Counted from the stretch's first letter, positions 6,623 through 52,778 are shown. The stretch is DNA of 64,000 nucleotides from Synechococcales cyanobacterium VAR_4_metabat_354 (GCA_031414775.1 JANOQI010000046.1:96001-160000), one strand, 5' to 3'. Notes: generated from the letters alone by a model not told the origin. Made by a program: numbers and translations.

Positions 6623-7480
6623 ATGATATCTAGGCTTGTTCTACTACTCATCCTCATCGGCCTCATGGCTTGTGGAAACAGCGTTCAGCAAGCTTTTGCT
6701 CCTGATCCACTTCTCCTACCCAAAACAACAACGGCTACAGTGCCAGAGCCGACAGTTAGTCCCAGTGCAGAAACTTTGCCAGCAAGCACATCTAGCCCTG
6801 AACCTAGTACCAATTCTTCAGTGGTAACGCCTAGTCCATCTAGTAATGATTACTTGGCGGAGTTAAGCGAGCTGGGAGTATTGTCACCCACCGAAGCCAA
6901 ACAGCCACCTAGTACGATCGTTAATAGGCGACAATACGCTCACTGGCTGGTAGCCGCCCATAATAAAATTTATCAAGCCAACCCTAGCCAACAGCTCAAA
7001 CTGGCGACTGCTGATACTCAGTCATCCTTTACTGACGTACCAGCTAATCATCCTGATTTTATTGCTATTCAGAGCCTAGCCAATGCTGGAATTATTCCAA
7101 GCACGCTTAGTGGCAGCAACCGCTCCGTTGCATTTCAGCCAGATTTGCCCTTGACCCGCGAAGAACTGATTTTGTGGAAAGTACCTTTAGATAATCGTCA
7201 AGCTTTACCGAATGCCTCCGTGACAGATGTGCAGAAAAATTGGGGCTTTCAAGATACAGCTAAAATCTCACCAGCCATGCTGTCATCGCTGTTGGCTGAT
7301 CATCAAAATGGTGATAAATCCAATATCCGCCGCGCTTTTGGCTACACAACCTTATTTCAACCACAAAAACCTGTTACTCTAGCAGAATCTGTTTCAACGA
7401 TTTGGTATTTTGGGACTAATGATGGTAGATCAGCCCATGATGCAATTATCAATACATCCACTCCCTCCCCATCCTCTTAA
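6623..7480 (+). CDS. S-layer homology (SLH) domain lipoprotein
   Basis: LMAC lipobox; FTDVPANHPDF.AIQ.LA.AGII, FQPD.PLTRE, FQPQKPVT.AE. Confidence 0.85.
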   Translation: MISRLVLLLILIGLMACGNSVQQAFAPDPLLLPKTTTATVPEPTVSPSAETLPASTSSPEPSTNSSVVTPSPSSNDYLAELSELGVLSPTEAKQPPSTIVNRRQYAHWLVAAHNKIYQANPSQQLKLATADTQSSFTDVPANHPDFIAIQSLANAGIIPSTLSGSNRSVAFQPDLPLTREELILWKVPLDNRQALPNASVTDVQKNWGFQDTAKISPAMLSSLLADHQNGDKSNIRRAFGYTTLFQPQKPVTLAESVSTIWYFGTNDGRSAHDAIINTSTPSPSS

Positions 7481-7503
7481 ATTCTGTTGCTGTTGATCAT
7501 CTA

Positions 7504-8406
7504 ATGCGCCAATCTACTCTCCATCAGCTTAAAGTCTTTGAAACTGTTGCTCGCTTAAGTAGTATTACTAGAGCAGCTGAGGAACTATCTCTAACTCAGC
7601 CAACTGTCTCGATGCAAGTCAAGCAATTGTCTAAAAATGTTGGTGCAACTTTATTTGAACAGATTGGAAAAAAACTTTACCTAACGGAAGCGGGTCAAGA
7701 ATTATTTAAGACCTGTCGCCATATTTTTGAACAATTGGCACAATTTGAGATGAAAGTGGCCGATCTACAGGGAATGAAAAGTGGACGGCTGAAGTTGGCA
7801 ACCATTACTACTACTAAATATTTTATTCCGCGTGTTCTGGAGCCTTTTTGTAAGATGTATCCGGGGATAGATGTCGCGCTCCAGATTACTAATCACGAAC
7901 GGATTATGAGCCGCCTTAGTCAAAATCAAGACGACCTATACATTGTCAGTCAAGTACCAAATTCAGCTGATTTTTCAGCCTTTCCTTTTCTGGAGAATCC
8001 TTTAGTGGTAGTGGCTCCAGCTAATCATCCCCTAGCTGGAGAATCCAACATTCCCATCTCAGCTCTGCAAGATTTGCCTTTTATTATGCGCGAAAGTGGT
8101 TCTGGTACCAGAACTGCTGTGGAAAATCTGCTGGAGGAACATCATGTTTCAGTTAGAGTTAAGCTAGAGCTGGGTAGTAATGAGGCTATTAAGCAAGCGA
8201 TCGCCTGTGGTTTTGGGATCTCGGTTTTGTCTCAACATACTTTTACGCCCGAATCTAAACTACTGGGTCTTACTATTCTGGATGTCCAACACTTTCCAAT
8301 TAAACGAGACTGGTATGTAATCTATCCAACCGGCAAGCAGCTTTCGATTGTCGCCAATACTTTTTGGGAGTTTCTACAAACAGAAAGCCAAAAATTTGTA
8401 CTTTAA
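7504..8406 (+). CDS. LysR-type regulator, CbbR group (CmpR/NdhR-like)
   Basis: TLHQLKVF..VAR..S.TRAAEEL.LTQPTVSMQ HTH; RE.GSGTR; ELGSNEAIKQA. Confidence 0.9.
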   Translation: MRQSTLHQLKVFETVARLSSITRAAEELSLTQPTVSMQVKQLSKNVGATLFEQIGKKLYLTEAGQELFKTCRHIFEQLAQFEMKVADLQGMKSGRLKLATITTTKYFIPRVLEPFCKMYPGIDVALQITNHERIMSRLSQNQDDLYIVSQVPNSADFSAFPFLENPLVVVAPANHPLAGESNIPISALQDLPFIMRESGSGTRTAVENLLEEHHVSVRVKLELGSNEAIKQAIACGFGISVLSQHTFTPESKLLGLTILDVQHFPIKRDWYVIYPTGKQLSIVANTFWEFLQTESQKFVL

Positions 8407-37112: not shown

Positions 37113-38399
37113 TCACTGAGTAGTAGCCAAACGGATGCCACTGAATTGCCAGCGGGTGGCTGGTGGAAAAAAGTTCCGATAACTAGCCCGAATATGACTG
37201 TGTGCTGTGAGGCAAGAACCACCCCGCAAGACCATTTGGTTACACATAAACTTGCCATTATATTCGCCCACCGCTCCGGCAGCAGACTGAAAACCGGGAT
37301 AGGGTAAGTAAGCACTTTGAGTCCATTCCCAAACATCCCCAAACATTTGTTGCATTTGACTAGTGGCCGTTGGGGGCTGGGGATGAAGTAGGCCATTTTC
37401 TAGCAAATTGCCTTGCCGCAGGAGCTGGTTGGCGGCCACTTCCCATTCTGCTTCCGTTGGCAGTCGTTTTTGTGCCCATCGCGCATAGGCATCAGCTTCA
37501 TAGAAACTAACATGACAAACTGGCTCATTTTCGTTCAAGATCTGTAATCCAGATAATGTCATCACCCACCACTGATCATCTATTTTCTCCCAATATAAAG
37601 GAGCTGGCCATTGCTCAGTTTGCACGGTAGCCCAGCCTGCTGAGAGCCAGTATTCTGGGTTCTGGTAGCCCCCCGCTGTGATGAATTCTAAGTATTCGCC
37701 ATTAGTGACTAACCGATTGGCGATCGCATAGTCCTGAAGATAAATGGGATGACTGGGGGACTCATTATCAAAGGCAAATCCCAGATCGTGCTCGGGATGG
37801 CCGATGGTATACAAACCGCCAGCATATGCCGACCAGGTAGTGGCCGTAATCTGATCAGTGGTTGTGGTAACTATCGGCGGCAAATCAGCACAATAGATGG
37901 GGTGGAGCGGATTGCTACCAAGGATGTGTTTAATGTCTGTTAATAACAACTCCTGATGTTGCTGTTCGTGATGTAATCCTAGCTTTACTAAGGATGCTAC
38001 AGCTGGATCGATCGATAGTTGGGAGAGGAGGGTGTTCATGGCTCGATCAATCGCTGCTCGATAGCGATAGATTTCAGCAACGGTAGGGCGAGATAGCAAG
38101 CCACGTTGAATGCGTGGATGACGTTGCCCGACGGCTTCGTAGTAAGAATTGAATAGATACCCAAACTGAGGATGAAAGACTTCGTAATCTGGCAGGTTAG
38201 GTAAGAGAATAAAAGTCTCAAAAAACCAGGTGGTGTGAGCCAGATGCCACTTGGGAGGGCTGACATCTGGCATACTCTGCACCCCATAATCTTCGATCGC
38301 GAGGGGCTGACAAAGTTTTTCACTGACTTGGCGAATATTTTGATAATGCTCGGCTAATGATTGATAACTAGTTTGTGGAATAGCTAGGAAAATGGTCAT
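37113..38399 (-). CDS. egtB: Ergothioneine biosynthesis sulfoxide synthase EgtB
   Basis: SPPKWHLAHTTWFFE, FNSYY, HHEQQHQE (DinB domain), FGE-like domain with EYNGKFM and RASYRNFF. Confidence 0.93.
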   Translation of the reverse strand: MTIFLAIPQTSYQSLAEHYQNIRQVSEKLCQPLAIEDYGVQSMPDVSPPKWHLAHTTWFFETFILLPNLPDYEVFHPQFGYLFNSYYEAVGQRHPRIQRGLLSRPTVAEIYRYRAAIDRAMNTLLSQLSIDPAVASLVKLGLHHEQQHQELLLTDIKHILGSNPLHPIYCADLPPIVTTTTDQITATTWSAYAGGLYTIGHPEHDLGFAFDNESPSHPIYLQDYAIANRLVTNGEYLEFITAGGYQNPEYWLSAGWATVQTEQWPAPLYWEKIDDQWWVMTLSGLQILNENEPVCHVSFYEADAYARWAQKRLPTEAEWEVAANQLLRQGNLLENGLLHPQPPTATSQMQQMFGDVWEWTQSAYLPYPGFQSAAGAVGEYNGKFMCNQMVLRGGSCLTAHSHIRASYRNFFPPATRWQFSGIRLATTQ

Positions 38400-38464
38400 G
38401 ACTGTATTTATTTTATCTAATACCTTAATACAGGGCTATCCAGCTTTTCAACAGCTGAGCTTAA

Positions 38465-39004
38465 TTATTCGATAGTGATATTACGGCATTCATTCAGGAG
38501 CAGATTCAGTTTTTCCATTATCTGCCAGGGGTTGCGACCTTTAAAGATTGCTGCCATAACGGCTTCATGAGGATTTCGGCCAGTTTGGCGGACAGTGGCG
38601 ATCGCTACTTTGTTGGATAGTCCATATTTTGCTACTAGCCAGACGGCCAAAACGTGGCCGGTGCGCCCCACGCCGCCGGAGCAATGGACGACAACTTTTT
38701 GCTGCCGTTGGTCAGCAATGGATAAAAATGGCAAAATTTGGTGAAAAAGTGCCGTGCGATCGACTAAGCCAAAATCCTCGATCGGACTCCAACAGACGGT
38801 ATCAAGTCCGAAGTGCTCTTGGTAAATACCTAACAAATCTGGATAGCGGGTGAGCTGATTTTTTGATAGCAAACAGCATACTCGCTGAATGCTTTGCTGG
38901 TGCATGAACTCGATCCATTCTTTAATCTGTCGATCAGTGTATCCTGGGCGAGCTGAGCCAAACACGATCAGTTCATCTTCTGAGGCTGCCGCAAATTTGT
39001 ACAT
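38465..39004 (-). CDS. Dual-specificity/protein-tyrosine phosphatase
   Basis: PIEDF acid loop; VHCSGGVGRTG (HCX5R). Confidence 0.9.
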   Translation of the reverse strand: MYKFAAASEDELIVFGSARPGYTDRQIKEWIEFMHQQSIQRVCCLLSKNQLTRYPDLLGIYQEHFGLDTVCWSPIEDFGLVDRTALFHQILPFLSIADQRQQKVVVHCSGGVGRTGHVLAVWLVAKYGLSNKVAIATVRQTGRNPHEAVMAAIFKGRNPWQIMEKLNLLLNECRNITIE

Positions 39005-39158
39005 GCTGTTCTGAGTTGGCACAAGACTTGTTTTAGCTGTAGCAGCAGTCTCTACAAACTAACACTAGCATCAATGTTCATTCCCCAAAATGATTTAATT
39101 GGGAACATCTACCTAGCTTAGTAGTTCCTATGGACTATGTAGCTCTTTTTAATCAACC

Positions 39159-39614
39159 ATGCGCAAATCACTTCTGGTTTTAAACTTTTTCTTAGTAATC
39201 AGTACCGCCATTTCTGCTATCACGGCTGCCGTCAGCAGCGCCCAGATCGCTACACCGGGAGCCTCTGGCTCTCCAGGTTTCCCTGGTACCCCCAGCATGA
39301 CGAATCCCCGCACCCCGGCCTCGCAGCCACTGGCTTCTGTACTGGCTGCTTTCAACTGTCAAACCCGAGGCGTAGCTACTAAAGTTGTGCTCAAGTCTGA
39401 TCGCACTTATAAAAGCGGTGATAAGCCTTTTCCACCAGTTAGTGGTTTTTATCAGAAAGTAGGTGATGCTTACCGTTTCAAAGATGGGACTTTAAAGAAT
39501 CAGTCGATCGTGCAACTCCGGAACAGCTATTATTTAGTGGCAACTGCCAAAGAAGCCCGAGCGGCTTCGATCGCTGCCACTGACGCGGCCCTGGTCTGCA
39601 CCAAAAAAAGATAG
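39159..39614 (+). CDS. Secreted hypothetical protein
   Basis: Signal peptide, Pro/Gly-rich linker, small beta-rich domain with two Cys. Confidence 0.6.
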   Translation: MRKSLLVLNFFLVISTAISAITAAVSSAQIATPGASGSPGFPGTPSMTNPRTPASQPLASVLAAFNCQTRGVATKVVLKSDRTYKSGDKPFPPVSGFYQKVGDAYRFKDGTLKNQSIVQLRNSYYLVATAKEARAASIAATDAALVCTKKR

Positions 39615-39639
39615 ACCAAAGATGAATATGTCCGCATAA

Positions 39640-40887
39640 ATGATCATGAATAACCAACAGCTATACTGGCGATCGAATGCTCTCCTTGTTTATCAAACAT
39701 TATTAGATGACGAGCCAGGTCGTTTGTGGCGGGAGCTGTTGGTCGCTGACAAGGATAATGTGCTTGTTGCTTATGGTCAGTGGTTTCGCTGCTTAGCTGA
39801 TCGGCAGCTGGGTTGGCAAGATTATTTACTCCAGCAACTTCTTACTACTGATAATCCTTTCACCAGACAAGTGCAGCAAACAGCATGGGTGGAGCTGTCA
39901 GTGGAACTGCGGCAAGCGGTGCATCACGACTTACTAATTCTGAGAGAAATTTATCACTATAACTGTAACCAAATCGTCCAATGGGTGACAGCTACTACTG
40001 GTTCAGAAACTGTGGCTTGGGCCGATCACTTACTATCTAAAGATCCTAGTGATTTAGCAATAACCCTCGACCAAAGTCCTGATTGGGTAGCAGTGTTGCC
40101 GAACTTGATTAAGCACTATCGTCAGTTTGGGACTGGTCACTTCGCCCAATTTTTGGCCTTTCGATCGCAGCAAGGAAAACTACAAGGCATTGCCGATCCT
40201 GATTCTATTAAACTCCAGCAACTAGTCGGTTATAGTTGGCAACAAGCTGCACTCATCCAAAACACTAAGGCATTGTCGGCTGGTTATCCGGCCTTAAATG
40301 TATTGCTCTATGGTAGTCGAGGTTCGGGTAAGTCTTCACTTGTAAAAGCTCTAGTACACGAGTTTGAGAATCTGCGGCTGATTGAAGTGCCCAAAAACGA
40401 ACTGATTAATCTGCCTCAAATTTTAGAGCAATTGCGGCAGTTACCGCAGAAGTTTATTATTTTTGTGGATGATTTATCTTTTGAGGCCGATGAAGATAAT
40501 TTCAAGACTCTAAAAGTAGTGTTAGAAGGTGGTCTGGTAGCTCGACCTGAAAATATTGTGGTTTACGCCACTTCCAATCGTCGCCACTTGATTCGAGAGT
40601 TTTTTGCCGATCGACCGCGCCCTCAAGATAGCGACGAAATTCACAACTGGGATACAGTTCAAGAACAATTATCCTTTAGCGATCGGTTTGGCCTCACTCT
40701 GACCTTTGAACCGGCCAATCAAGAAACTTACTTACAAATTGTTCATCATCTAGCTGCCGGGATAAAAATTACACCTGAAGATTTGACTTTTCGGGCTTTG
40801 CAATGGGCAACGCAACAAAACGGTCGATCGGGTAGAACCGCCCGGCAGTTTGTGGACTTTCTGCGATCGGAGTTGGCTGACATTTAG
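39640..40887 (+). CDS. DUF815 family AAA+ ATP-binding protein
   Basis: NVLLYGSRGSGKSSL, FVDDLSFE, YATSNRRHL, SFSDRFGL, GRSGRTARQF. Confidence 0.92.
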   Translation: MIMNNQQLYWRSNALLVYQTLLDDEPGRLWRELLVADKDNVLVAYGQWFRCLADRQLGWQDYLLQQLLTTDNPFTRQVQQTAWVELSVELRQAVHHDLLILREIYHYNCNQIVQWVTATTGSETVAWADHLLSKDPSDLAITLDQSPDWVAVLPNLIKHYRQFGTGHFAQFLAFRSQQGKLQGIADPDSIKLQQLVGYSWQQAALIQNTKALSAGYPALNVLLYGSRGSGKSSLVKALVHEFENLRLIEVPKNELINLPQILEQLRQLPQKFIIFVDDLSFEADEDNFKTLKVVLEGGLVARPENIVVYATSNRRHLIREFFADRPRPQDSDEIHNWDTVQEQLSFSDRFGLTLTFEPANQETYLQIVHHLAAGIKITPEDLTFRALQWATQQNGRSGRTARQFVDFLRSELADI

Positions 40888-40964
40888 GTTGGTACCTGCT
40901 GCCAATAAAAAAGACTTAGTTGTTCACTATAGTCTTTGTTTTTTCAGATAAGTTATTTTATTAG

Positions 40965-42107
40965 CTAAAATCTAGCTGGAATTGCATGCATTACAGCTAC
41001 CAGACTTTCCTGCTGATACTCAAAACTCAAAAACTGCTCACGAGTTGACCGAATATCAATAAAATCGGCAGATTGAGGTAAATAGTTAGCAAAATTGTCT
41101 TGAAGCTGAAAATTAGCTTTATGTAGTCGATCGATCCATGTTGTCGCTAGTTCATGCCGCTCACTGCGTAGTTCCTCTGGATTGCCAATAATGTCTTTAA
41201 TTTCTCTCCCAAAGAAAAGCTTCAAGGCTCTTTTTTCGTCTCCAGAAATTGCTAATTCATTAATTAACTTAAATACTAAATTGAAATGGTATAAACAGTT
41301 TTCAAACCGCTGAATAAAGCTTGTCTCCAGGTGATTGCTATTGGGTTCACTGAGGAAAACAGCAAGAGGGTGAAGATCATGAAGAAAATGGAAGATATCT
41401 TCCCGGATATTAGGGTGCTGCTCATTGTTCTTGATATGGTGTAGAGCAAATGATGCATTAATTACCACGTTTTGATGCTGATACTGTTTTGCCAAGTTTG
41501 CCCAGGTTTTAGCAGAGATATTTTCAACACAATTATTAATTTGATGAAAGTTTAGAGATATTGCTGTTTCTATGCCCTGTAACTTTTTCTGAGCAGCTAC
41601 TAAACTTTTGGCAGAAGGCTCAATTCCAATAATTGTAATTTCTTTTAATGTTGATGACTTTTCAGCAAGCTGTTGAATTATTTTGCTGCATTGATGAGCT
41701 GTCCCGATTCCGATATCGAGTAGTACAACATGTTTATGAGCTAAGCACATATTAACAATCATATCGTTAACAATCTGCTGGGCAAAGGCAACGTGGGGTA
41801 ATTCTTCTATTAATAATTTAAAAAGATCAATTTGGGCAATACTACTATTTGCCAAATAAAGATTATTATCAGCTTTCTCTGAGGAGTAACAACCCAATTT
41901 CCATCGTAAAGCTTTGCTAGCAGAGTATTGGAGTGTATGAGGATTATGGCATAAACTATCATGAACCTGCTCTAGCTTAAGCATTGTTTTTGATGTCACG
42001 CTTTGATTAGCGATATCTTGAATTATTTCTTGAAATGGATGGTCAGTTTTTGACTGAAAGTTTGATGAGATGACTTCTTTAATCGGAGAAAATTTTATTG
42101 GAGACAT
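40965..42107 (-). CDS. Bacterial GRAS-domain protein (Rossmann methyltransferase fold)
   Basis: PHVAFAQ..VN, VLLDIGIGTAHQ, ITIIGIE, VINASFALHHI, LHP..V.LSEPNSNH, F..RF..CL.HF, FFGREIKDII, RSERHE...W..RL..A.F; colinear with plant GRAS motifs. Confidence 0.88.
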   Translation of the reverse strand: MSPIKFSPIKEVISSNFQSKTDHPFQEIIQDIANQSVTSKTMLKLEQVHDSLCHNPHTLQYSASKALRWKLGCYSSEKADNNLYLANSSIAQIDLFKLLIEELPHVAFAQQIVNDMIVNMCLAHKHVVLLDIGIGTAHQCSKIIQQLAEKSSTLKEITIIGIEPSAKSLVAAQKKLQGIETAISLNFHQINNCVENISAKTWANLAKQYQHQNVVINASFALHHIKNNEQHPNIREDIFHFLHDLHPLAVFLSEPNSNHLETSFIQRFENCLYHFNLVFKLINELAISGDEKRALKLFFGREIKDIIGNPEELRSERHELATTWIDRLHKANFQLQDNFANYLPQSADFIDIRSTREQFLSFEYQQESLVAVMHAIPARF

Positions 42108-42530
42108 ATTTTTTTGGTTGGATGCCAGATTTTTGTATGTATATTCAGCTCAATTTGAAGTACGATACTACTTTCTTCTCATGATGAAATACTGGATTGA
42201 TTTCTTGCTAGATAAGCATCTCAACCATTATTCGCTATTGATTTTAAATCTGAAAGAGGGTAGTAAAATATTCTCTACAGCTGAAAATATTTTTCATTCT
42301 ATACTAAATTTAATATTTCATATATGTTCTAAATAATTACAATTTTAATTGTTGCAAATGTACTATTTCAGCTTTTATGATATGAAGCCTTTTTATTATC
42401 AGAGTCTTGTAAGGAGGAAGGCTTGAACTTACTAAGAGTCATTTGTAATCTTTATGTATCTGAAAATACCAATTAAGGTAAGTTTATTTTTCAGGGTATC
42501 AAATGATACCAATAATAAATTAGCGTAGAA

Positions 42531-45500
42531 TTAGCTATGAGTTCTATCGGCTAGTAATCGTTGAATAGTAATGGCTAGTTGCTTAAGTCGAACGGGTTTA
42601 CTAAGATATTCGTTAGCTCCAGCTTTTAAGCATCTTTCTCGATCTTCTGGCATGGCCAAAGCAGTAAGGGCAATAATTGGAATATTTTTATTTTCCCTCC
42701 GAATCTCTTGAATCGCTTCTAGACCATTAACAGTGGGCATTTGAATATCCATTAAAATTAGGTGTGGAGCCTGTAATTTATATAGATCGATCGCCTCTTG
42801 TCCATTACTTGCCAAAATTAGGTGATAGCCACGACTTTCGAGGTAATTCACAAAAGTTTCAATATTGGCTTGATTATCTTCTGCTAACAAAATGAGAGGT
42901 TGCTGACGATCCGTTGTGGTCAATTTTCCTACGTCTTGTTTATGTTCTAGTAAAGATGGAATCATCTCTTCTGGTTGAATATATTGCTTAGTGTATGGTA
43001 GATGTACTGTAAAGCAACTACCTTTTCCTACTTCACTTTCTACTGTTACCCAACCGCCATGTAAATTAACAATTTGTTTTACTAAGGCTAGTCCCAATCC
43101 AGTGCCTGCATACTGGCGGCTGAGACTGCTATCAATTTGGACAAAAGGCTGAAAAAGTTTTGCTAAATCATCCGGCGCAATGCCAATACCATTATCAATG
43201 ATCGAGAAACATAGAACATTGTGAGGCTCTGCTGAATTGAACACCACTTCTTTAGCCGCTGAGCTTTCGAGGTAGGTATTTAGTAAGATCTGACCACCAG
43301 CAGGAGTGAATTTAACAGCATTACTGAGTAAGTTAATCAATACCTGGCGGATGCGTCGTTCATCGACACAGGTTTTTTCGATACCAGGCTGACAATTACT
43401 AATTAAACGGATATCTTTTTGCTGTGCCTGTTGTCTAACAAAAGATAAGCTAGAGTTACTTAGTTGCTCAATAGCAACAGCCACTAATTCAAGTTCTAGC
43501 TTCCCGGCTTCGATTTTCGAGATTTCCAAAATATCGTTAATTAGCGACAGCAGATGTTTCCCCCCTTTTTCGATTATTTGTAGAGACTTCTGCTGACGCT
43601 CATTTATTGAGCCAAAAACTTCTTCTTGTAAACCTTCTGACATGCCCAGAATTGCATTGAGCGGAGTGCGCAATTCATGACTCATATTAGCTAAGAATGC
43701 ACTCTTCGATTGATTCGCTTGATCGGCAGATTCCTTGGCTGCTTTTAGTTCGATCGTGCGTTCCGCAACTCGTTGCTCTAAAACTACTAATGATTCTTGC
43801 TGCTTGGTATAGAGGATGGCATTCTCGATCGAGATGGCTGCTTGGGCAGTTAATAATTTTAGGAGGTCGATGCGATCATTAGTAAAGGCGCCAGATGTTA
43901 GACTATTCTCTAAATAGATTACCCCAATTAATCTGCCCTGATTGATAATTGGACAGCACAAAATACTCAGCAATTGATGTTGCTGAATATAGAAATCGTT
44001 TGAAAATTCAGGATGCTTGTTAGCATCGTCTAATACCAATGGTTCTACACCAATTTGAACAAAGTTAACAACACTAACCGGAACATCTTGACTATCTTCT
44101 AAATTGACAGGGAGAATAACTTGGGGTTGTTGTCCTACTTCGATCCGGGCGATTATCTGTAAGGTCTGCTTTTGTTGTAAGAGTAAAACACACTTATCAG
44201 CGCCAGCATTAGTAATTAGAATGGTGAGTAGTGTGGCCAGGAGTTTATTCAGTTCGATGTCTTCTGAGATAGCTTGAGATGCTCTAAAGAGGGTTGATAG
44301 ATCTAGTAAATTGGAACCATTAGTAGAGAATAAAGACATTTCTGCCTTTCTCTCGGCATTAGAAATCAGAGATAGTAGTTGTGGATAACGGGCAGTGAGA
44401 TCATTAACTTTAGCTGTGGCTCCCCAGTGAATGTAACAATAATAAGCCTCCGTCATATAAACCTGAGCCACTTTATCTTTGCCCCAATCTAGATAAAATT
44501 TAGCAGCCAGCTCGTTAGCGAGGGCTTCTTCATTGATAAATTGATTTACTTGAGCACCCTTAATAGCTAAATCATAGTGTTCGATCGCGATGACTCTGTT
44601 GCCCAAAACCCGCTGCTTTTCAGCTTCGATCAGATGCCACTTATGCTGATAATTAGTCGGAGCAGTTTGTGCCCACTGTGCCAGAGTGGCTTGATGGATT
44701 TCTATCTGGGTCAGGATTTTGGCTGGTACTACTGTAATGAGTGCTAGGTGTGTCAGGGCTGTATAAAAGTGGAAAACTGGCACCAACATCATTCCTGATA
44801 CTGCCAGCAAATATTGGTTGGCCTGTTGCTGGTGTGCCATTGCTGCCGGATAGTTACCAAAGTAATAGGCTAGCAATAGCTTGTAAATATAGACATAGGC
44901 ACTGCCACTGAGATCATGATCCTGTTGGTGTCTAGGTAACATCACCGTTTCATCATAGATATCTCCCTGGAGATCATCAGGTCGATTGGTGATTTCCATG
45001 AAATTCTGAACTACTTGCCTCTTAATATCTAAATGATTCCGGGCAGATTGCTGCTTCATCTGCCCTAATGCGTTGCTATAAGCTGATATTTCTTCTATCC
45101 AGTTGTCTAGTTTTACCCCACTGAGTAAGTTAGCTTCACAGTAACAATTAATGCTGTAGCCCGCATTCAGCAAGGCTCCAGCTTCCATACCAGCTATATA
45201 CCCATTTTTGAGAGTTGGCATTACTGCGCGCAAAGATTCTTGGCGATGTTGAATCCAACCACCAAAAACTAAGAGAATCGTGCTTTTGAATTCTCGGGCA
45301 TCAAAGCGATCAAGCAAACTTATGGCCAATTCCCCAAAGCAATGTCCTCTTTTTACGTCACCCAGAAAAGAACTGAGTACTAGACCGTAGTTGGCATATC
45401 CTACTAAGGATGCTGGTGTATTGCCAAACTGGAGTGATAGATTCACCATCATCGCACTCATGATTGGCATCAAGCTGGGCATACCAATGAAGATAGGTGC

Positions 45501-48347
45501 TCCTAAAATTACGCACAGTTTCATCGCCGACTGAGCATGGGGATCTTTCATGATTGGCAGATCTAAAAGATCCTGAATTGCTCGACTCTGAAGTTGGTTT
45601 GCTAGGGACTGTAATGCTTGACCTGTCGTTGCTTCATCGGGGGAAGCCGAGAGGTTAAATCCTAATTCTTGAAGTGCTGCTCTGCCAATATCGATCGCCT
45701 TGAGCATGTCACCGTTAGCTGTTTGCGACCAGATTTGAAATTGGTAAATTTTCACTTTATCTAAAATAGTTCTAGCTTCTTGCAAGACTACCTTGCCTAT
45801 CCGTTCCATGGTCTCCGGGTCGCCACTGAGGTAAGCTGTTTCGGCCGCTGCCACATACAGGCCAAGAGCCAAATCATATTGGGTTTGCCAACAGTCTGGA
45901 TCCAGCAGCTCTATACCAGTTTGCAGATAAATATTAGCAGCGGTGTAAGCAGTAGAACTCCAGGCTTTTCCACCGGCAGCTAAATTTAGTGTTGCTAGTT
46001 TTTCTCGATCGCCAGGTTGAGTAATTAATTCTTTGCCCCGATTTAAATGTCCGACAATATCAAACAGTTGCTCGTCTTGGACTGTTCCAGAAAATTTATG
46101 CTGAAGTAGTTGTCCAATTTTGAGATGAGTTACTTGTTTTTGCTGGTCGGAAACTAAGGAATAAGCCGCTTGTTGGATGCGATCATGGGGGAAACGATAA
46201 AATGGATTGGCCTGTCGCAAGGAAATAGAATAGTTTGACTCATTGATAAAGCATTGCTGATTTTCTGTTTGGGGAATAATTAAACTCTCTTTTAACAAGG
46301 GCCATAGTGCTGTGGCAGTATCATCCAGTGACCAATCCAAAACTAATGCCAGGGTTAGCAGATCGAACTGTTTTCCCATCCCAGAGGCAAATTGGAGTAC
46401 TTGTTTGGTGGATATAGGTAGTTTCTGTAATTGCAGCACCATGAACTCAACCACATCATCAGTAATCACCTGCGTAACATCCCATTGCCACTGTCGTCTT
46501 TGAGAATCAAAAAAAATTTGCCCTTCTTGATACAAAGCTTTAAGTAGTTGATTAATAAAAAAGGGATTACCTTGAGTTTTTTGATACACCAGCGTTGTTA
46601 GGGATCTTGCTACAAACACCGTACATTTGAGTGTGTCGGCAATTAACTGATCTATATCTGGCAGCTTTAATGGTTGCAAGCTAATTGTACTAATATTGGT
46701 TCCAGCTGCTTGGACATCATTCACCATTAATTTCAACGGGTGAACAGGTGAGACTTCGTGATCGCGGTAAGCACCTAATATTAGTAAATACTGTGTGTTC
46801 TGTATTAAAGTTTGTAATAACTTCAAAGATTCAGCATCTGCCCACTGCAAATCATCGAGAAATAAAACTAGGGGATGTGCGGCGGTGCTAAACACCTGTA
46901 CAAACTTCTGCATCACCAGATTAAAGTGATGTTGTGCACCACTACCTGATAATTTAGGAGGGAGAGATTGTTTACCAATAATTCTCTCTAACTCTGGAAA
47001 CACCTCAATTAATATTTGTCCATTTTCTCCCACAGCTTCCAGAATCCTAGTTTTCCACACCTGGAGTTGAGTGCTTGAGTCAGCAAGTACTTGTCTCAGT
47101 AAATTACGAAAGGCTTGCACTAATGCTGAAAATGGAATATTACGTTGGAATTGTTCGTACTTACCCTGGATAAAGTAACCTCGCTGTCCCACAATTGGCT
47201 TATGAATTTCTTGGATGATGGCAGTTTTCCCAATTCCGGAAAACCCGGCGATGAGCATCATTTCTGTCACTCCTTTGCTTATCCTTTCAAAGGCATTTAG
47301 TAGTGTCTCAACTTCTGCTTCTCGCCCATAGAGTTTTTCTGGGATTAAGAATCGATCGCTGATGTCCTTGGTACCTAGATCAAATGCTGGGATCGTACCT
47401 GTTGTCTGTAATTGAGTCAGACAAAATTCTAGATCGTATTGTATTCCAGAGGCACTCTGGTAGCGGTTTTCCGCATTTTTAGCCATTAGTTTACTGATGA
47501 TATCAGCCAAAACTAGTGGCACGGATGGTTGTAGCTGTCTAATTGGAATAGGCTGCTGGGCTAGGTGACAATGCACTAACTGCATTGGATCGTCCGTAGT
47601 AAAAGGTAACTGCCCAGTCAATAATTCATAGCAGGTTACACCAAAAGCATAAAAGTCACTGCGGTAATCAACACCCCGATTCATCCGACCAGTTTGCTCT
47701 GGCGACATGTATGCTAATGTCCCTTCTAGGGTATTGATATGATGAATGTCTTGAACTTCTCTGGGTAGTGATGAAGAAATATTAAAATCGATTAGTTTAA
47801 CCTGTTTGGTTTCTGGGTTGATTAAGATGTTGGCAGGTTTTATATCTTTGTGAATTATCTGATAATGATGCAAATCATTTAAAGCGGCAGCAATTTGAAT
47901 CGCTATTTGTAAAAATGTTGTCAAATTCTGTGAATTATTACCAAATGCTTTAGTGTGATTTCGTTCTTTCCCACCCAATTTTTCAAGTACATTTTTAAGA
48001 GAAATGCCCCCATAGTCTTCCAATACTAGGGCATAAGAGTGCTGATAATCTTCAAATGCAAAGGTTTTAACAAGAGTAGGTGCATCAAAATCTTTGGCAA
48101 TGGTGTATTGATGACGAAACTGAGTAATCTCATTAAAATCAGGAAATCGATTCCGCAAAATTTTGATCACGACTGGATATTGATCATATTCTCGTATCCC
48201 TCGATAAACTAGAGTACGAGTTCCTTGGTATATCTGTGCTGTGATTTGATATTTTGGCAATTCTGGAAAGTTATGAGACCAAAAATCAGTATTATTAGTC
48301 TCACCAAAACTACTAAATTCATTATCAATGATGAAGGAGTCTGACAT
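42531..48347 (-). CDS. Multidomain Ser/Thr kinase-AAA/STAND ATPase-helical-GAF-His kinase-REC protein
   Basis: [53 protein letters not shown] (GAF), [25 protein letters not shown]. Confidence 0.93.
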
Positions 48348-48612
48348 TTGTATTAATCTATGTTGTTTTGGAATCCATTAGATTTAACTTTTGTCTATCC
48401 TCGGAATTTTACATATTAATTCTGAAGATATAATGAAGCATTCTCTGTATTGCTGTGGCCAGAGCTTGGGAATTTTGATATAAATAAGTGCTGTATATTT
48501 AGTATTCCCAACTATTCTATAGGAATAACCTCCTGGAGGAAACAAATTATTACTACTATATTGACTAATTTATTGATAAGTTTTGTTTAATCCTCTATCC
48601 TCAAGCAGGGCT

Positions 48613-49080
48613 ATAGTAGGTAGAGTTCTCACCGCTTGTGGAATCAAACCAATTAAGGAATGGCAATAGTTGTTTAAGGCATTCTGGCTATATGGGGCTG
48701 TGGAACCTGCTACAGGATAGTCTTTTTTTCTGCAATTTTCTCATGTCGAGACTGAGTGCTTTCAGATATTTTTGGATAAATTTTCCCAGGTTTATCCGGA
48801 TAGCCTCAATATTATTCAGGTGGACAATGGCCGTTTTCATACCAGCAAGAAGTTGGTGCTACCAGAGAATATCATTTTGTTGTTTCAGCCTCCTTATTGT
48901 CCAGAGTTAAATCCAATTGAGCACTTGTGGCAATACCTAAAATCTGATTTACGGTGGGCTTCTTTTAAAACCCTAGAGCAACTTTTGGTGCAGTTGACTC
49001 CTGAAGTGATTGCTTCCGTTACAGGATATCCCTTTATTCTGGATGCTCTATCTGTCGTTAATACTACTTAAATTAGTATA
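48613..49080 (+). pseudogene. IS630-family transposase remnant (5'-truncated, two in-frame stops) with right end
   Basis: One frame from 48613: GRVLTACGIKP..EWQ*LFKAFWLYGAVEPATG*SFF...QVDNGRFH...QPPYCPELNPIEHLW; ends AAATTAGTATA. Confidence 0.88.
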
Positions 49081-49109
49081 AAATTACTTTTAAAGTGGCA
49101 TTCAGACCA

Positions 49110-49161
49110 AAACTCGATAAAAAAACATCAGTCTAAAGACTGATGCTTTTTTATCGAGTTT
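49110..49161. terminator. Long hairpin, likely terminator of the 49683-49219 gene
   Basis: AAACTCGATAAAAAAACATCAGTCT-AA-AGACTGATGCTTTTTTATCGAGTTT. Confidence 0.75.
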
Positions 49162-49218
49162 CTAGATGATTGTTCCTTGTGAAAAGGATTAAACAAGAAC
49201 ATCTAAAATAAACTAAAT

Positions 49219-49683
49219 TTAGAAGCGGAAAGCACCACCAAGGGTGACACTAGTACCACCATCAGCACTGTTAAAAGGAATGTCAACAGTACCATTCAAA
49301 GCAAATTCTCTGGTGAAGTTCCAGTCAGCACCAGCTAGGAATGAGCCAGTTGTTGCTGTTGCACCACCGCCGGTAGCGAAGTTGATACCAGCTCCGACGA
49401 ATGGAGTGAGTGGTGATCTACGACCTAAATCCCAGTCATAAGTAAGGCCACTACCAAAAACAGTACCGCCAGCAGGAAAGGTAATGAAAGGTCGCAGAGA
49501 TAAGTTATCAGCAATACCTAACTTACTATTGATACCAAAAACGGAGTTACCATTACCGAAGGTGACAGTAGGACCAACTTGGTTGAATCCTCTACCACCA
49601 GCTTGTGCAGCATTAGGCATTTGAGTAACTGCGGCGGCAGCTGCTGCAACAGTGATTACAGTCGTTAATAAAATTCTTTTCAT
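49219..49683 (-). CDS. Small outer-membrane beta-barrel protein
   Basis: Signal peptide ending AQA; alternating beta strands (LSLRPF, LTYDW, TPFVGAG); C-terminal FRF. Confidence 0.75.
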   Translation of the reverse strand: MKRILLTTVITVAAAAAAVTQMPNAAQAGGRGFNQVGPTVTFGNGNSVFGINSKLGIADNLSLRPFITFPAGGTVFGSGLTYDWDLGRRSPLTPFVGAGINFATGGGATATTGSFLAGADWNFTREFALNGTVDIPFNSADGGTSVTLGGAFRF

Positions 49684-49847
49684 AGTTCGGTCACTCCCAA
49701 AATTTTCATTTCTACTATACTACATAGTCCGATGCGCTTGCCATCTTCCTTGACTAGGCATTGGCCTGCATATCTTCCTTGACAGCGAACATCAAGAAAT
49801 GTTCCCAAAATTGTTTCAATTCTCAGCAAAACATTATCCTAATCACT

Positions 49848-51077
49848 TCAAAAAGTTTGATGGTTTATCAAAGTTGGATAATCCTCGCGGGTTCTGATGA
49901 GCCGATAGTTGTGGCCATCAATCAAGACTTCCGCTGGCCGGGGTCGGTGAAGGAAGTGTGAAGACATGGCGTAACCATAAGCTCCCACATCTGATATGGA
50001 AACAATGTCATCAATGGCGAGGCGGGGCAACAGGCAATTGCGCCCCAGATAATCGCGGGAATAAGTAGTGTTGCCGCAAACATCAGTAGTGAATAACTTC
50101 TGATCTAGTGTAGTTGCAGTAGGATCATTCCAGGTAAAGATTTGACGATAACCACCATGCACTGATGGTACTGATAGATTAGCTACTGTGGTATCGACTC
50201 CAATAATTTGTTTCTGTCCTTGCCACTTGGTGGATACTACTCGGGCTAATAAAACAGCACACCCAGCAATCACTGCTCGACCTGGTTCTATTGCTAACTG
50301 GATGGGGAAATCTAGCTGTAATAGTCGGTTACTTAAGGTTGCTCCAAACGCTGGCCAGTCGAAGGCCATCCCATCAGACTGATAGGGATAGCCAAAGCCA
50401 CCACCAAAGTCTATATAAGACCAATCTGGTAATTGAGTAGCCAAGTTCAAGACGGTATCGATCGCATCGGTAAAGGCTTTGGTGGCATTGGTGCCGGTGC
50501 CACGATAAAAATGTAAACCATCTAAGGTCAAACCAGCAACTTGGGTGATATCGATCGCTTGACTAAATTCATCGGGATGTACGCCAATTCGGCTATTACC
50601 AGTCAAGGTGGGATAATTCAACCGCAATCCCAGCTGGGGTTTGGCATAATCTTTACAGTAGAGATCGCACAGTAATTGCAATTGACTTAAACTATCGAGA
50701 TTAACCGTGCGAATACCCCAGGCCAAAAGTTGGCGCATCTCTTCCCGGTTAAGATTACTACCGCTATAGACAATTTGATGAGGGTTAAAGCCAGCCTGAA
50801 GACCTAAATAGATATCGCCGGGCGTGTTGGCATGTAAGCCCCAACCCCGCTCTCGAAAAATTTGGAGGAGGGCAATATTGCCATTGGTCACGCTGGCGAA
50901 ATGGAACTGGGTGTGGGGGTAGGAAATAGAATTAGTAATATGGTCGATAGTAGACAACAATTGATCGCGCTGATAAACATACAGGGGTGATCCGTAGGTA
51001 TTTAATAGTGTTTTGGCTATATCGATCGAGAATGGTACTGAATTCTTATTAGTCACTGGCGCAGCTGATTCAGTCAT
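49848..51077 (-). CDS. LysA-fold (fold-type III PLP) decarboxylase-like protein with atypical active site
   Basis: YGSPLYVY, NLDS, DFGGGFG, EPGR, D.GAYG.AMSS, RP.EV; FASVTN in place of YAxKAN. Confidence 0.85.
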   Translation of the reverse strand: MTESAAPVTNKNSVPFSIDIAKTLLNTYGSPLYVYQRDQLLSTIDHITNSISYPHTQFHFASVTNGNIALLQIFRERGWGLHANTPGDIYLGLQAGFNPHQIVYSGSNLNREEMRQLLAWGIRTVNLDSLSQLQLLCDLYCKDYAKPQLGLRLNYPTLTGNSRIGVHPDEFSQAIDITQVAGLTLDGLHFYRGTGTNATKAFTDAIDTVLNLATQLPDWSYIDFGGGFGYPYQSDGMAFDWPAFGATLSNRLLQLDFPIQLAIEPGRAVIAGCAVLLARVVSTKWQGQKQIIGVDTTVANLSVPSVHGGYRQIFTWNDPTATTLDQKLFTTDVCGNTTYSRDYLGRNCLLPRLAIDDIVSISDVGAYGYAMSSHFLHRPRPAEVLIDGHNYRLIRTREDYPTLINHQTF

Positions 51078-51113
51078 TATTCCTTGATACGTATTGAATG
51101 TTTATGAATGTTT

Positions 51114-52778
51114 TTAGCGATCACCAGTTCGGGAGTTAATAGCTTTCCATAGCGGCTGTGGCCACCAAAAAGGGTGATTCCAACTGTGTGGAGGATCAGA
51201 TTGTCCTAAGACTTGAGTGCGCCAGCGCTCCCACATAACAATTAACCACAAAATCTCGCCCATCCGCCGTCCTTGTATCACACCACCAAATTTGCCACTC
51301 ACCAATCGATCCGCTAAATCCGGCTGCCAGCAACCAGCTTGCTTTAACACATGGGGATTGAGCCAAGTGCCTAGTTCTGACCATAATCCTGGTACTAGCC
51401 AGGGCGTGAGCGGCACGCCCATCCCGCGTTTGGTACGCCAAACAATTTCGGGCGGTAGTAAGTTATCTATGGCTTTTTTGAGGATATATTTTTCACAAGA
51501 GCCTTGCAAATGCAGGGTGCCGGAAACTCCAAATGTCCATTCAGCTAGGGGCAAGTCACAGAATATCGATCGAACTCGTAAACCATGCCAACTAGCCAAA
51601 TTACTAGCACGAGGCTGGATATTTTGGGCACCTTTCAGCATCAAGGTCGCTCGGCGCAGGCGGTGGAGCAAATCATTTGTCCAGCCTGGATCTAAAGCAG
51701 CATCAACCCAATCATGAGGTTCCGGCAACTGGGAGATAATTTGTGGCTGGAAAACTTGGGCTGTGTAGCCGTATAAACGATGAAAAGTCTGAAGATAATG
51801 CTGAGTAAAATCGGCAGCACCACCGTAGATACTGGCTGCAATCAGGGGTTTATTTGTCCAGCCTCCAAACAACTGGTCACCACCTTCACCATTAAAAATT
51901 ACTGATACTTCAGAACTGGCTGCTTGGCATAATAAATAGAGTGGAACCGTCACCCCATCGCCAAAAGGCAGATCTAGTGCTTGAGCCGTGGCATCGATCG
52001 ATCTCTTCACTAACTGTGGATTGACCGGTACTTTGCGAAGGGGAATTTTCAGATGGGTGGCGACTTGGGCGGCGTAGGGCAGTTCGGAAACACCGTATTC
52101 ACCAAAATCTAGGGTGTAGGCCAAGAGTTTGATGCCGTTCTTGACCAATAGTGCTGCGGCGATCGAAGAATCTAAACCACCGGATAGTAATACTCCTACC
52201 GGTTCGTCTGGTAAATCCTGAATTTGACGTTGGATCGCTAGCTGCAATAGATTTTGCAGTTGATCGATCGCTATATTTTCATCAGTTAGCTGGGTCGGGG
52301 ATTGTTGCCACTGCTGTTGATGGATAATTATGGGTGGTTGATTGGTTGCCGACCATTGTAATTCTTGTCCGGCTGGCACTGAGTGAATACCGGCGATCGG
52401 AGTCAACGGATTGGGGACGTAGGAAAAGCAGCTATAGCCGTAGAGGGCTGCGTGATCGATCATTGGCTGTGCCAGTAGTGGCAACAGTAGCCGGATATGA
52501 GACGCAAAGTAGATGGTGGTATCAATTTCTGTCCAATACAGAGTCAGACAACCAAACGGTTCCCGCCCCAGAATCAAACGATTGTCTTGTTGCCGCACCC
52601 AGATATTCGAAGCCAGTCCTGATGACGAAAGACCCTGCGGCTGGTTGGTAAGAGGCTGAATATTTTTTGCTTTTATTCCAGCTCGCTGGTATAAAAGCTG
52701 CACAGATGGGGCTTGCCCCCAATAGCCCACTAGTTGCTGAGCTGTAATTACTACACCACTACAAATCTCTTGCCCCAT
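51114..52778 (-). CDS. Asparagine-synthetase-like ATP-dependent amide ligase with degenerate glutaminase domain
   Basis: LSGGLDSS PP-loop, GEGGDQLFGG, EKYILK, R.K.GM..P; REPFG in place of RD.FG; no N-terminal Ntn Cys. Confidence 0.85.
   Translation of the reverse strand: MGQEICSGVVITAQQLVGYWGQAPSVQLLYQRAGIKAKNIQPLTNQPQGLSSSGLASNIWVRQQDNRLILGREPFGCLTLYWTEIDTTIYFASHIRLLLPLLAQPMIDHAALYGYSCFSYVPNPLTPIAGIHSVPAGQELQWSATNQPPIIIHQQQWQQSPTQLTDENIAIDQLQNLLQLAIQRQIQDLPDEPVGVLLSGGLDSSIAAALLVKNGIKLLAYTLDFGEYGVSELPYAAQVATHLKIPLRKVPVNPQLVKRSIDATAQALDLPFGDGVTVPLYLLCQAASSEVSVIFNGEGGDQLFGGWTNKPLIAASIYGGAADFTQHYLQTFHRLYGYTAQVFQPQIISQLPEPHDWVDAALDPGWTNDLLHRLRRATLMLKGAQNIQPRASNLASWHGLRVRSIFCDLPLAEWTFGVSGTLHLQGSCEKYILKKAIDNLLPPEIVWRTKRGMGVPLTPWLVPGLWSELGTWLNPHVLKQAGCWQPDLADRLVSGKFGGVIQGRRMGEILWLIVMWERWRTQVLGQSDPPHSWNHPFWWPQPLWKAINSRTGDR

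Follow-up and report, generated by a model that had tools for sequence, protein, structure and literature searches.

A GRAS-family protein and its companion hybrid kinase in a cyanobacterium: a probable small-molecule methyltransferase of a bacterial branch separate from that of plants

Results

The window (the whole 64,000-nucleotide stretch of DNA analysed here) carries on its minus strand, at 40965..42107, an intact open reading frame with an ATG start and no internal stop codon, which encodes a 380-aa GRAS-family protein (P0001) composed of a helical cap and a Rossmann methyltransferase core, with no N-terminal extension of the plant type. Upstream and co-oriented lies the gene for a 1938-aa hybrid kinase (42531..48347, minus strand) that combines a Ser/Thr kinase, an AAA_16 ATPase, GAF, HisKA and HATPase domains and a receiver; its catalytic motifs are intact, and it has one borderline hydrophobic stretch. 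The two genes are separated by an AT-rich spacer of 423 nt (42108..42530), in which no promoter signal rises above shuffled sequence (the promoter/terminator scan gave 10 sites vs 7.5 ± 2.4 in shuffles), and Rfam yields 0 matches over window positions 38000-50000. On one side this two-gene unit is flanked by a convergent gene for a DUF815 ATPase (39640..40887, plus strand), present in 10 of 11 other genomes of the genus; upstream of the kinase lies the remnant of a DDE_3 transposase (48772..49071, plus strand). The host genome (3.56 Mb) carries both PsaA and PsaB, and the host is therefore a cyanobacterium, as the initial annotation of this DNA had supposed.

Two genomes and one contig indicate that the kinase and the GRAS gene behave as a unit. 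In a second genome of the genus (G403) the gene order is identical, with identities of 68% for the kinase, 66% for the GRAS protein and 82% for the convergent DUF815 protein; the spacer there is similar in length and poorly conserved in sequence, and the transposase remnant is missing from that site. G403 is the sole GRAS-bearing member of the 11 other same-genus genomes, and only there is an ortholog of the kinase found (73% over the N-terminal 489 aa); in the remaining ten, no GRAS gene was found, nor any kinase above 59% over those 489 residues. An 8.3-kb contig from a second study (X5) spans window positions 40949-48546, and hence both genes, with 193 differences in 7.6 kb. Neither this co-travelling kinase nor the family-wide aminotransferase and sensor context described below had been mentioned in the initial annotation.

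In another genome (G407; DUF815 85% identical), the kinase-GRAS site is occupied by PadR-like, V4R-like and ABC-exporter genes and a 2131-aa polyketide synthase (L162:3326-16425), these labels being our own reading. Also on the minus strand of the window are an EgtB-like gene (DinB_2 plus FGE-sulfatase) with a dual-specificity phosphatase (37113-39022) and, at 49848-52778, an asparagine-synthase-like amidotransferase gene followed directly by a second lysA-like PLP decarboxylase gene that scores under the LysA cut-off; the two may form a small biosynthetic pair. The egtB gene itself (37113-38399) was considered as a partner of the unit and rejected, because it does not adjoin the unit in G403 and because the genome already possesses an EgtD-family gene.

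By all tests run, P0001 is a GRAS protein, as had been proposed. The Pfam GRAS profile (PF03514) matches it at 106.8 bits (cut-off 27; E 1.5e-30) over profile positions 16-325 of 374, and 15 of the 17 PDB sequences returned by phmmer at E<=1 are plant GRAS proteins, the best being RGA (E 3e-10). Residues 98-334 align colinearly to RGA, and every plant-GRAS motif quoted in the initial annotation is found, in colinear order, in this alignment. The series LHRI-VHIID-LHRII-PFYRE, the motif list given in the available text of two GRAS papers (PMC4279901; PMC5332381), is likewise kept in order (RGA alignment 98-334; structural match of the model, 21-379). An AlphaFold2 model (pLDDT 90.6, pTM 0.88) retrieves plant GRAS structures at Foldseek ranks 1-10, and among 48,161 chains compared by VIA-align it reaches Z 34.1-36.3 over 334-345 residues with SCL3, RGA, SCL7 and SHR-SCR. 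The best non-GRAS chain, CmoA, scores Z 17.4; the proposed kinship with Rossmann methyltransferases is supported by the fold, with other methyltransferases lying far below the plant GRAS proteins (Z 17 against 34-36). Complex prediction for a P0001 homodimer with SAM gave a score of 0.00 in two runs, an outcome that favours neither side.

Nearly all of the 23 plant-like bacterial and 8 plant sequences terminate in residues resembling S-A-W. In P0001 the terminal strand is modelled at E367-377 and the S-A-W there reads M-H-A, so that the earlier remark that SAW is absent is correct although the last strand is present. The R-E pair of the C-terminal motif lies in RSERHE (R314-E319; 41151..41168, minus strand).

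Residue conservation was assessed in an alignment of 227 bacterial GRAS sequences, non-redundant at 70% and with the own clade of P0001 left out. Motif I, the VHIID equivalent, reads LLDIGIGTAHQ in P0001 (residues 129-139; 41691..41723, minus strand) and keeps D131 (92% of the 227), G133 and G135 (100%) and Q139 (99%). The loop itself is DIGIGTA, with Ala at position 137, where Gly stands in 94% of the bacterial set, in all 8 plant sequences and in two close relatives of P0001 (P0005 and P0007). E163, at the end of strand 2 (41619..41621, minus strand), is Glu or Asp in 100% of the bacterial set and Gly in 8/8 plant sequences, and E195, after strand 3 (41523..41525, minus strand), is Glu in 98%; on the general pattern of class I methyltransferases, we take these to be the predicted contacts to the ribose and the adenine of SAM, respectively. 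The segment NASFALHH (N217-H224; 41436..41459, minus strand) follows strand 4. Its N217 (93%), H223 and H224 (99%), together with E254 (100%) and H274 (96%; 41286..41288, minus strand), are all present in P0001. Of the two adjacent histidines, H223 is kept in plants and H224 in bacteria only, and the column of H274 holds Tyr in 8/8 plant sequences; H224 and H274 are candidate catalytic or metal residues.

The 8 plant sequences retain D131, Q139, H223, E254, H259, R314, E316 and W324, and in most or all of them other residues stand at G133, G135, E163, Y84, H224 and H274, with G133 retained by a single sequence. These same six positions are kept in 22-23 of the 23 plant-like bacterial GRAS proteins, E163 as Asp or Glu in all 23. 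The replacement of the SAM residues in plants fits a report that plant SHR-SCR bound neither SAM nor SAH by ITC, as given in the accessible part of that paper (PMC5873383). Because P0001 keeps the SAM-binding residues that are near-invariant in the 227 bacterial sequences, SAM binding holds as a prediction, and a strong one, of which we are highly confident; catalytic activity we regard as quite likely. The initial annotation had suggested SAM binding from the DxGxG loop and the acidic residue after strand 2. As a prediction this stands, with D131, G133, G135, E163, E195 and N217 all retained, but the third loop glycine, replaced by A137, had gone unflagged.

P0001 is one of several hundred bacterial GRAS proteins, and another case of a kind published in 2012. 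Zhang, Iyer & Aravind (Bioinformatics 28:2407) are said to have described bacterial GRAS-domain proteins as predicted methylases in that year, and NCBI already names such proteins ‘GRAS family protein’, cyanobacterial ones (Leptothoe, Mastigocoleus) included. A word-indexed search with P0001 gave 290 matches among 1754 candidates; among the matches listed are seven close relatives at 66-71%, followed at 33-42% by proteins of Bacteroidota, Paenibacillus, Leptothoe and Mastigocoleus. The full HMMER scan returned 566 representatives at E<=0.001, among which there may be plant sequences, and fusions of 650-735 aa appear among the matches listed from it. Single-sequence scans of the loci gave no confirmed relative (57 and 119 pattern matches) and were then repeated with an alignment (A1); a search with A1 for longer fused forms, of 910-2595 aa, yielded no case from 6953 candidates; as only that range of lengths was covered, the evidence is weak. 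Phage records gave no match, and plasmids two records.

Cyanobacterial GRAS proteins are rare and polyphyletic, PF03514 being found in 2 of 401 cyanobacterial genomes (the host counted) and in 0 of 14 controls. The only other GRAS gene in this 401-genome sample (G026; L150:7913-10215) is followed by two TerB-like genes. Five of the 39 genomes of the host's family give a match, and only the host (G000) and G403 carry the ortholog. Weak matches in the remaining three (G416, G428, G439; 26-29%) were considered as GRAS proteins and rejected; the one tested, L149, has no PF03514 hit. Despite this, hhalign pairs L149 with the GRAS alignment at 98% probability, and it was omitted from the 73- and 42-row trees. 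Such a GRAS-sister methyltransferase is encoded in three genomes of a sister genus (L149:6698-11917, L169, L170), after a tyrosine phenol-lyase and before a 2OG-Fe dioxygenase in L149, and after an LDH/MDH-like gene in L170; a PDB search with the L170 protein gave 0 matches.

The gene neighbourhoods of the family were surveyed in the best 80 of 165 genome matches and in 62 metagenome loci. Because this set is heavily Bacteroidota and partly redundant, the counts overstate independence, and since related genomes are not independent, they describe rather than test. A HisC-like PLP aminotransferase lies directly downstream of the GRAS gene in 78 of the 123 loci with at least 500 nt downstream: 56/66 in Bacteroidota, 22/46 in metagenome or other loci, 0/1 unnamed, and none in the three named cyanobacterial, five Pseudomonadota and two Bacillota loci. 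GRAS-aminotransferase fusions, in opposite orders and from different clades, occur among the matches listed (P0164, P0251). A TAA1/alliinase-like identity for this partner was rejected, since its best matches are to HisC and Alliinase_C is hit only below cut-off (E 8e-4). At the window locus no aminotransferase is present, the HisC-like genes of the genome lying on other contigs. Two of the three named cyanobacterial loci (L050:7695-10029, L066:7728-10006) have a ScyB-like amino-acid dehydrogenase directly downstream. This dehydrogenase scores 527 bits, below the ScyB cut-off of 600; the GRAS proteins of both loci are of Leptolyngbyaceae type and nest among TerB-fused GRAS proteins.

GRAS genes are found in 16/401 genomes of the phylum of G423 (probably Myxococcota), and in the 12 regions fetched from it an aminotransferase belongs to the run in 4 (L188-L191). 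One of these (L189:3486-7500, in G594) is a tight, co-oriented run of a tryptophan halogenase, an aminotransferase and a GRAS gene of the plant-like clade (216 bits), which together may constitute a compact pathway leading to a methylated halo-indole compound. Another (L188:4882-11054, in G839) carries on one strand LysR, a TauD dioxygenase, a HisC-like aminotransferase, a plant-like GRAS gene (242 bits) and an MFS exporter. In Runella-type loci (L032, L037, L054, L075; about 7000-7770) a LOG/SLOG-family (Lysine_decarbox) gene sits directly upstream of the GRAS-aminotransferase pair, an adjacency that may be only lineage-specific synteny.

Signalling genes form the other theme, and many GRAS neighbours match neither. 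Of 69 Bacteroidota loci, 25 have a LytS-type kinase in the vicinity of GRAS, in one of three arrangements; a frequency of 39 such domains per 21.2 Mb would predict about 3%. A GRAS-SpoIIE-DUF6272-type operon, which we take to resemble a partner-switching module, is present in 5 of the 12 fetched regions (L191, L193-L196). In these regions and at L131:7803-13149 the order is GRAS, a 179-aa gene (whose Atlas neighbours include DUF2378), a SpoIIE phosphatase, a DUF6272/HATPase-like gene, a 135-aa gene and a variable last gene, the latter an aminotransferase, adenylate cyclase, aldehyde dehydrogenase or ABC gene. In 20 loci, mostly of Bacteroidales type (L009, L014, L020, L071, L117, L118 and others), one or two ~130-aa SpoIIAA/STAS-like genes stand beside GRAS; the Pfam hit for these SpoIIAA-like genes is weak (E 3e-4, below cut-off). 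Several proteins join TerB to GRAS in one chain, and CBS fusions too are found among the matches listed; in Skermanella a PAS kinase lies in the neighbourhood. Our literature searches found nothing joining a GRAS domain and TerB, and GRAS neighbourhoods, including the aminotransferase and TerB links, may already be described in Zhang 2012, Cheng 2019 or their supplements.

A search with L141, the most plant-like of 18 GRAS-type proteins scanned (244.9 bits), returned 31 proteins, 23 of them bacterial (named members: Myxococcales, Nannocystaceae, Myxococcota) and 8 from plants. Trees, all unrooted, were built from 73 rows (quick) and from 42 rows (mixture model, quick and careful), with a plant sample of seven DELLA-named proteins and one other, and no algae. 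In the careful mixture-model tree the plants nest inside the SAW-bearing bacterial clade (100/100), and a Bacteroidota-rich clade is the sister group of the window clade plus P0009 (97/93). The 73- and 42-row trees agree on both placements, and a 190-row FastTree from which plants were absent recovers the second. The AU test rejects both a grouping of the window clade with plants (p 6.6e-6) and a single clade of the four cyanobacterial lineages (window clade, L050, L060, L150; p 3.6e-16). P0001 reaches 22% identity with its best plant sequence, vs 31-35% for four members of the SAW-bearing clade. At L142:6760-8816 (and L143) there is a SAW-bearing GRAS gene with a shortened C-terminal region, whose neighbours are a CpeS-like lyase, a DUF3463 radical SAM gene and DUF1517.

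Discussion

Taken with the fold, the family, residue conservation, purifying selection, co-occurrence with the kinase and position in the tree, these observations make it probable that P0001, a member of the bacterial GRAS branch that is not plant-like, is active as a SAM methyltransferase of small molecules. The protein would bind SAM and methylate a small molecule, most likely an amino acid or its 2-oxo acid, with an aromatic one favoured. In this lineage it would supply the enzymatic part of a two-gene unit whose other member is a cytoplasmic Ser/Thr-His hybrid kinase, and its product or substrate would then probably be a signal read or controlled by that kinase. Because no aminotransferase adjoins the window copy, its substrate class is taken over from the family; given catalysis, we put an amino- or 2-oxo-acid substrate at about even chances, and a functional link between P0001 and the kinase could equally well hold or fail. 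A methyltransferase acting with a transaminase is a known route to beta-methylphenylalanine (MppJ and TyrB), according to the text available for PMC11496134. Literature searches found no biochemical study or activity of a bacterial GRAS protein, queries on prokaryotic GRAS returning plant surveys.

Alternatively, P0001 might be a non-catalytic sensor of SAM or of a small molecule that regulates the adjacent kinase through protein contacts, in the manner of plant GRAS proteins; its counterparts in other bacteria would act on LytS/LytTR, STAS or SpoIIE partners. The recurrence of signalling neighbours across clades, the CBS and TerB fusions, a window unit with no metabolic gene and the departure of A137 from the family Gly would all suit such a role, but we consider it unlikely, since the putatively catalytic H224 and H274 are kept here and lost in plants together with the SAM loop, and since the fusion or tight coupling to aminotransferases and the halogenase or exporter operon fit an enzyme. 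We give little weight to a SAM-using enzyme with non-methyl chemistry, such as CmoA-like carboxy-SAM formation. In such chemistry carboxy-SAM is made from prephenate with release of phenylpyruvate, itself to be recycled by an aromatic aminotransferase; an aryl-pyruvate product would suit the aminotransferase and dehydrogenase partners, and CmoA is the top non-GRAS structure (rmsd 3.2, 224 residues aligned). Its Z of 17.4 is, however, tied with that of an ordinary methyltransferase (3dtn, 17.3) at 13% identity and therefore speaks to the fold alone, and no CmoB-like partner was seen among the scanned neighbours.

The remaining alternatives concern history. A neutral passenger, or a decaying horizontally acquired gene unlinked to the kinase, could be read from the GC content of the GRAS gene (0.36, in the lowest 2% of 1695 long ORFs), its patchy presence and the nearby transposase remnant. 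Yet the frame is intact and the gene is under purifying selection (dN/dS ~0.10): against the G403 orthologs, GRAS has a dN/dS of 0.22/2.1, the kinase 0.215/1.9 and DUF815 0.117/1.8, with dS near saturation. The matching dS of the three genes argues for long residence and long joint inheritance, and the gene order shared with G403 and the X5 contig also tells against a passenger, which we judge very improbable. Low GC as proof of recent transfer was rejected, dS being close to that of the flanking gene and the G403 copies having GC of 0.41 and 0.45. The initial annotation had further held that a cyanobacterial copy bears on the origin of plant GRAS proteins. The host is indeed a cyanobacterium, and the SAW-bearing L142 (near-duplicate L143) lies among cyanobacterial-looking genes (the CpeS-like lyase), so the SAW clade has reached such a genome; a cyanobacterial source of plant GRAS, through plastid endosymbiosis or transfer from a cyanobacterium, is nevertheless hardly credible. 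The tree places plants in the separate SAW-bearing clade and the window clade with the Bacteroidota-rich one, both AU tests reject the groupings in question, just 2 of 401 cyanobacterial genomes have PF03514, and L142 sits on a long branch, is not resolved as sister to plants and has a split aminotransferase upstream. Two papers, in their accessible portions, trace plant GRAS proteins to a single bacterial subgroup and to a transfer whose donors were soil bacteria (PMC12448838; PMC9942845), and further papers treat a bacterial source, as far as their available text goes (10.1101/398883; 10.1101/835561; PMC10699852; PMC4279901; PMC5332381). P0001 adds nothing to the plant-origin question, for which the SAW clade (L188, L189, L141) is the better target.

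For P0001 as a methyltransferase, the neighbourhoods point to amino or 2-oxo acids as a specific substrate class and to a possible role in signalling, and H224 and H274, which plants have lost, are the candidate catalytic residues. A wider proposal, tentative and on balance doubtful, is that bacterial GRAS proteins are signal synthases which, with a PLP aminotransferase or an amino-acid dehydrogenase, use a two-histidine site to methylate an amino or 2-oxo acid of aromatic, possibly indole, type, the product being read by a neighbouring kinase, phosphatase or cyclase; the window pair would then be a minimal synthase-receptor unit. If this were so, an enzyme of this sort would be the ancestor of plant GRAS proteins, in which the SAM loop and the two histidines disappeared and the substrate side of the cavity was kept, and a ligand class would be predicted for the plant cavity.

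Comparison with known systems

Like other bacterial GRAS proteins, P0001 is a stand-alone domain (~360-380 aa in that group) with PF03514 above cut-off, intact Rossmann SAM motifs and a sporadic distribution. Unlike them, its small clade (P0001-P0008, 66-71% identity) mostly has Ala at loop position 137, and its partner is a Ser/Thr-His hybrid kinase, not an aminotransferase or TerB. Plant GRAS proteins (RGA 9o4j, SCL3 6kpd, SCL7 5hyz, SHR-SCR 5b3h) share with it the cap and core fold (334-345 residues, rmsd 2.4-3.1, Z 34-36) and the residues D131, Q139, H223, E254, H259, R314, E316 and W324, at 16-22% identity; P0001 differs in having neither the variable N-terminal region nor SAW, and in keeping the SAM loop, E163, H224 and H274, which plants have replaced. 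The SAW-bearing, plant-like bacterial clade (P0266-P0288, L141) keeps the SAM motifs and both histidines, as P0001 does, and has aminotransferase neighbours in L141, L188 and L189. Its members, however, match Pfam at 216-245 bits over nearly the whole profile, vs 107 for P0001, have GxQW, RVERH and SAW as in plants, and belong to a clade that contains the plants, unlike the window clade.

Two groups of small-molecule methyltransferases offer a further comparison. For the EgtD family (Methyltransf_33) no PF10017 hit was obtained with P0001 at E<=0.01; the Atlas score of 0.75 is a lead only, and a separate, full EgtD-family gene is present on contig C31 of the genome. The keto-acid C-methyltransferase SgvM (8ftr) shares the class I fold (Z 15.8) at 11% identity and has a different N-terminal domain, and the profile match to it is not significant (E 0.17). 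In the parts of the papers available, SgvM binds zinc through H244 and H296 (PMC10502145), MppJ has an iron site (PMC10784701), and MppJ/TyrB and SgvM follow a methyltransferase plus transaminase gene logic (PMC11496134, PMC10502145) such as is seen in the GRAS family. The pair H224/H274 of P0001, like the zinc ligands of SgvM, comprises two histidines ~50 residues apart, an equivalence that is a candidate only, the end of the profile match putting H274 two residues off H296. By analogy, then, and with no claim of membership, the 2-oxo-acid C-methyltransferases are a model for how P0001 may work.
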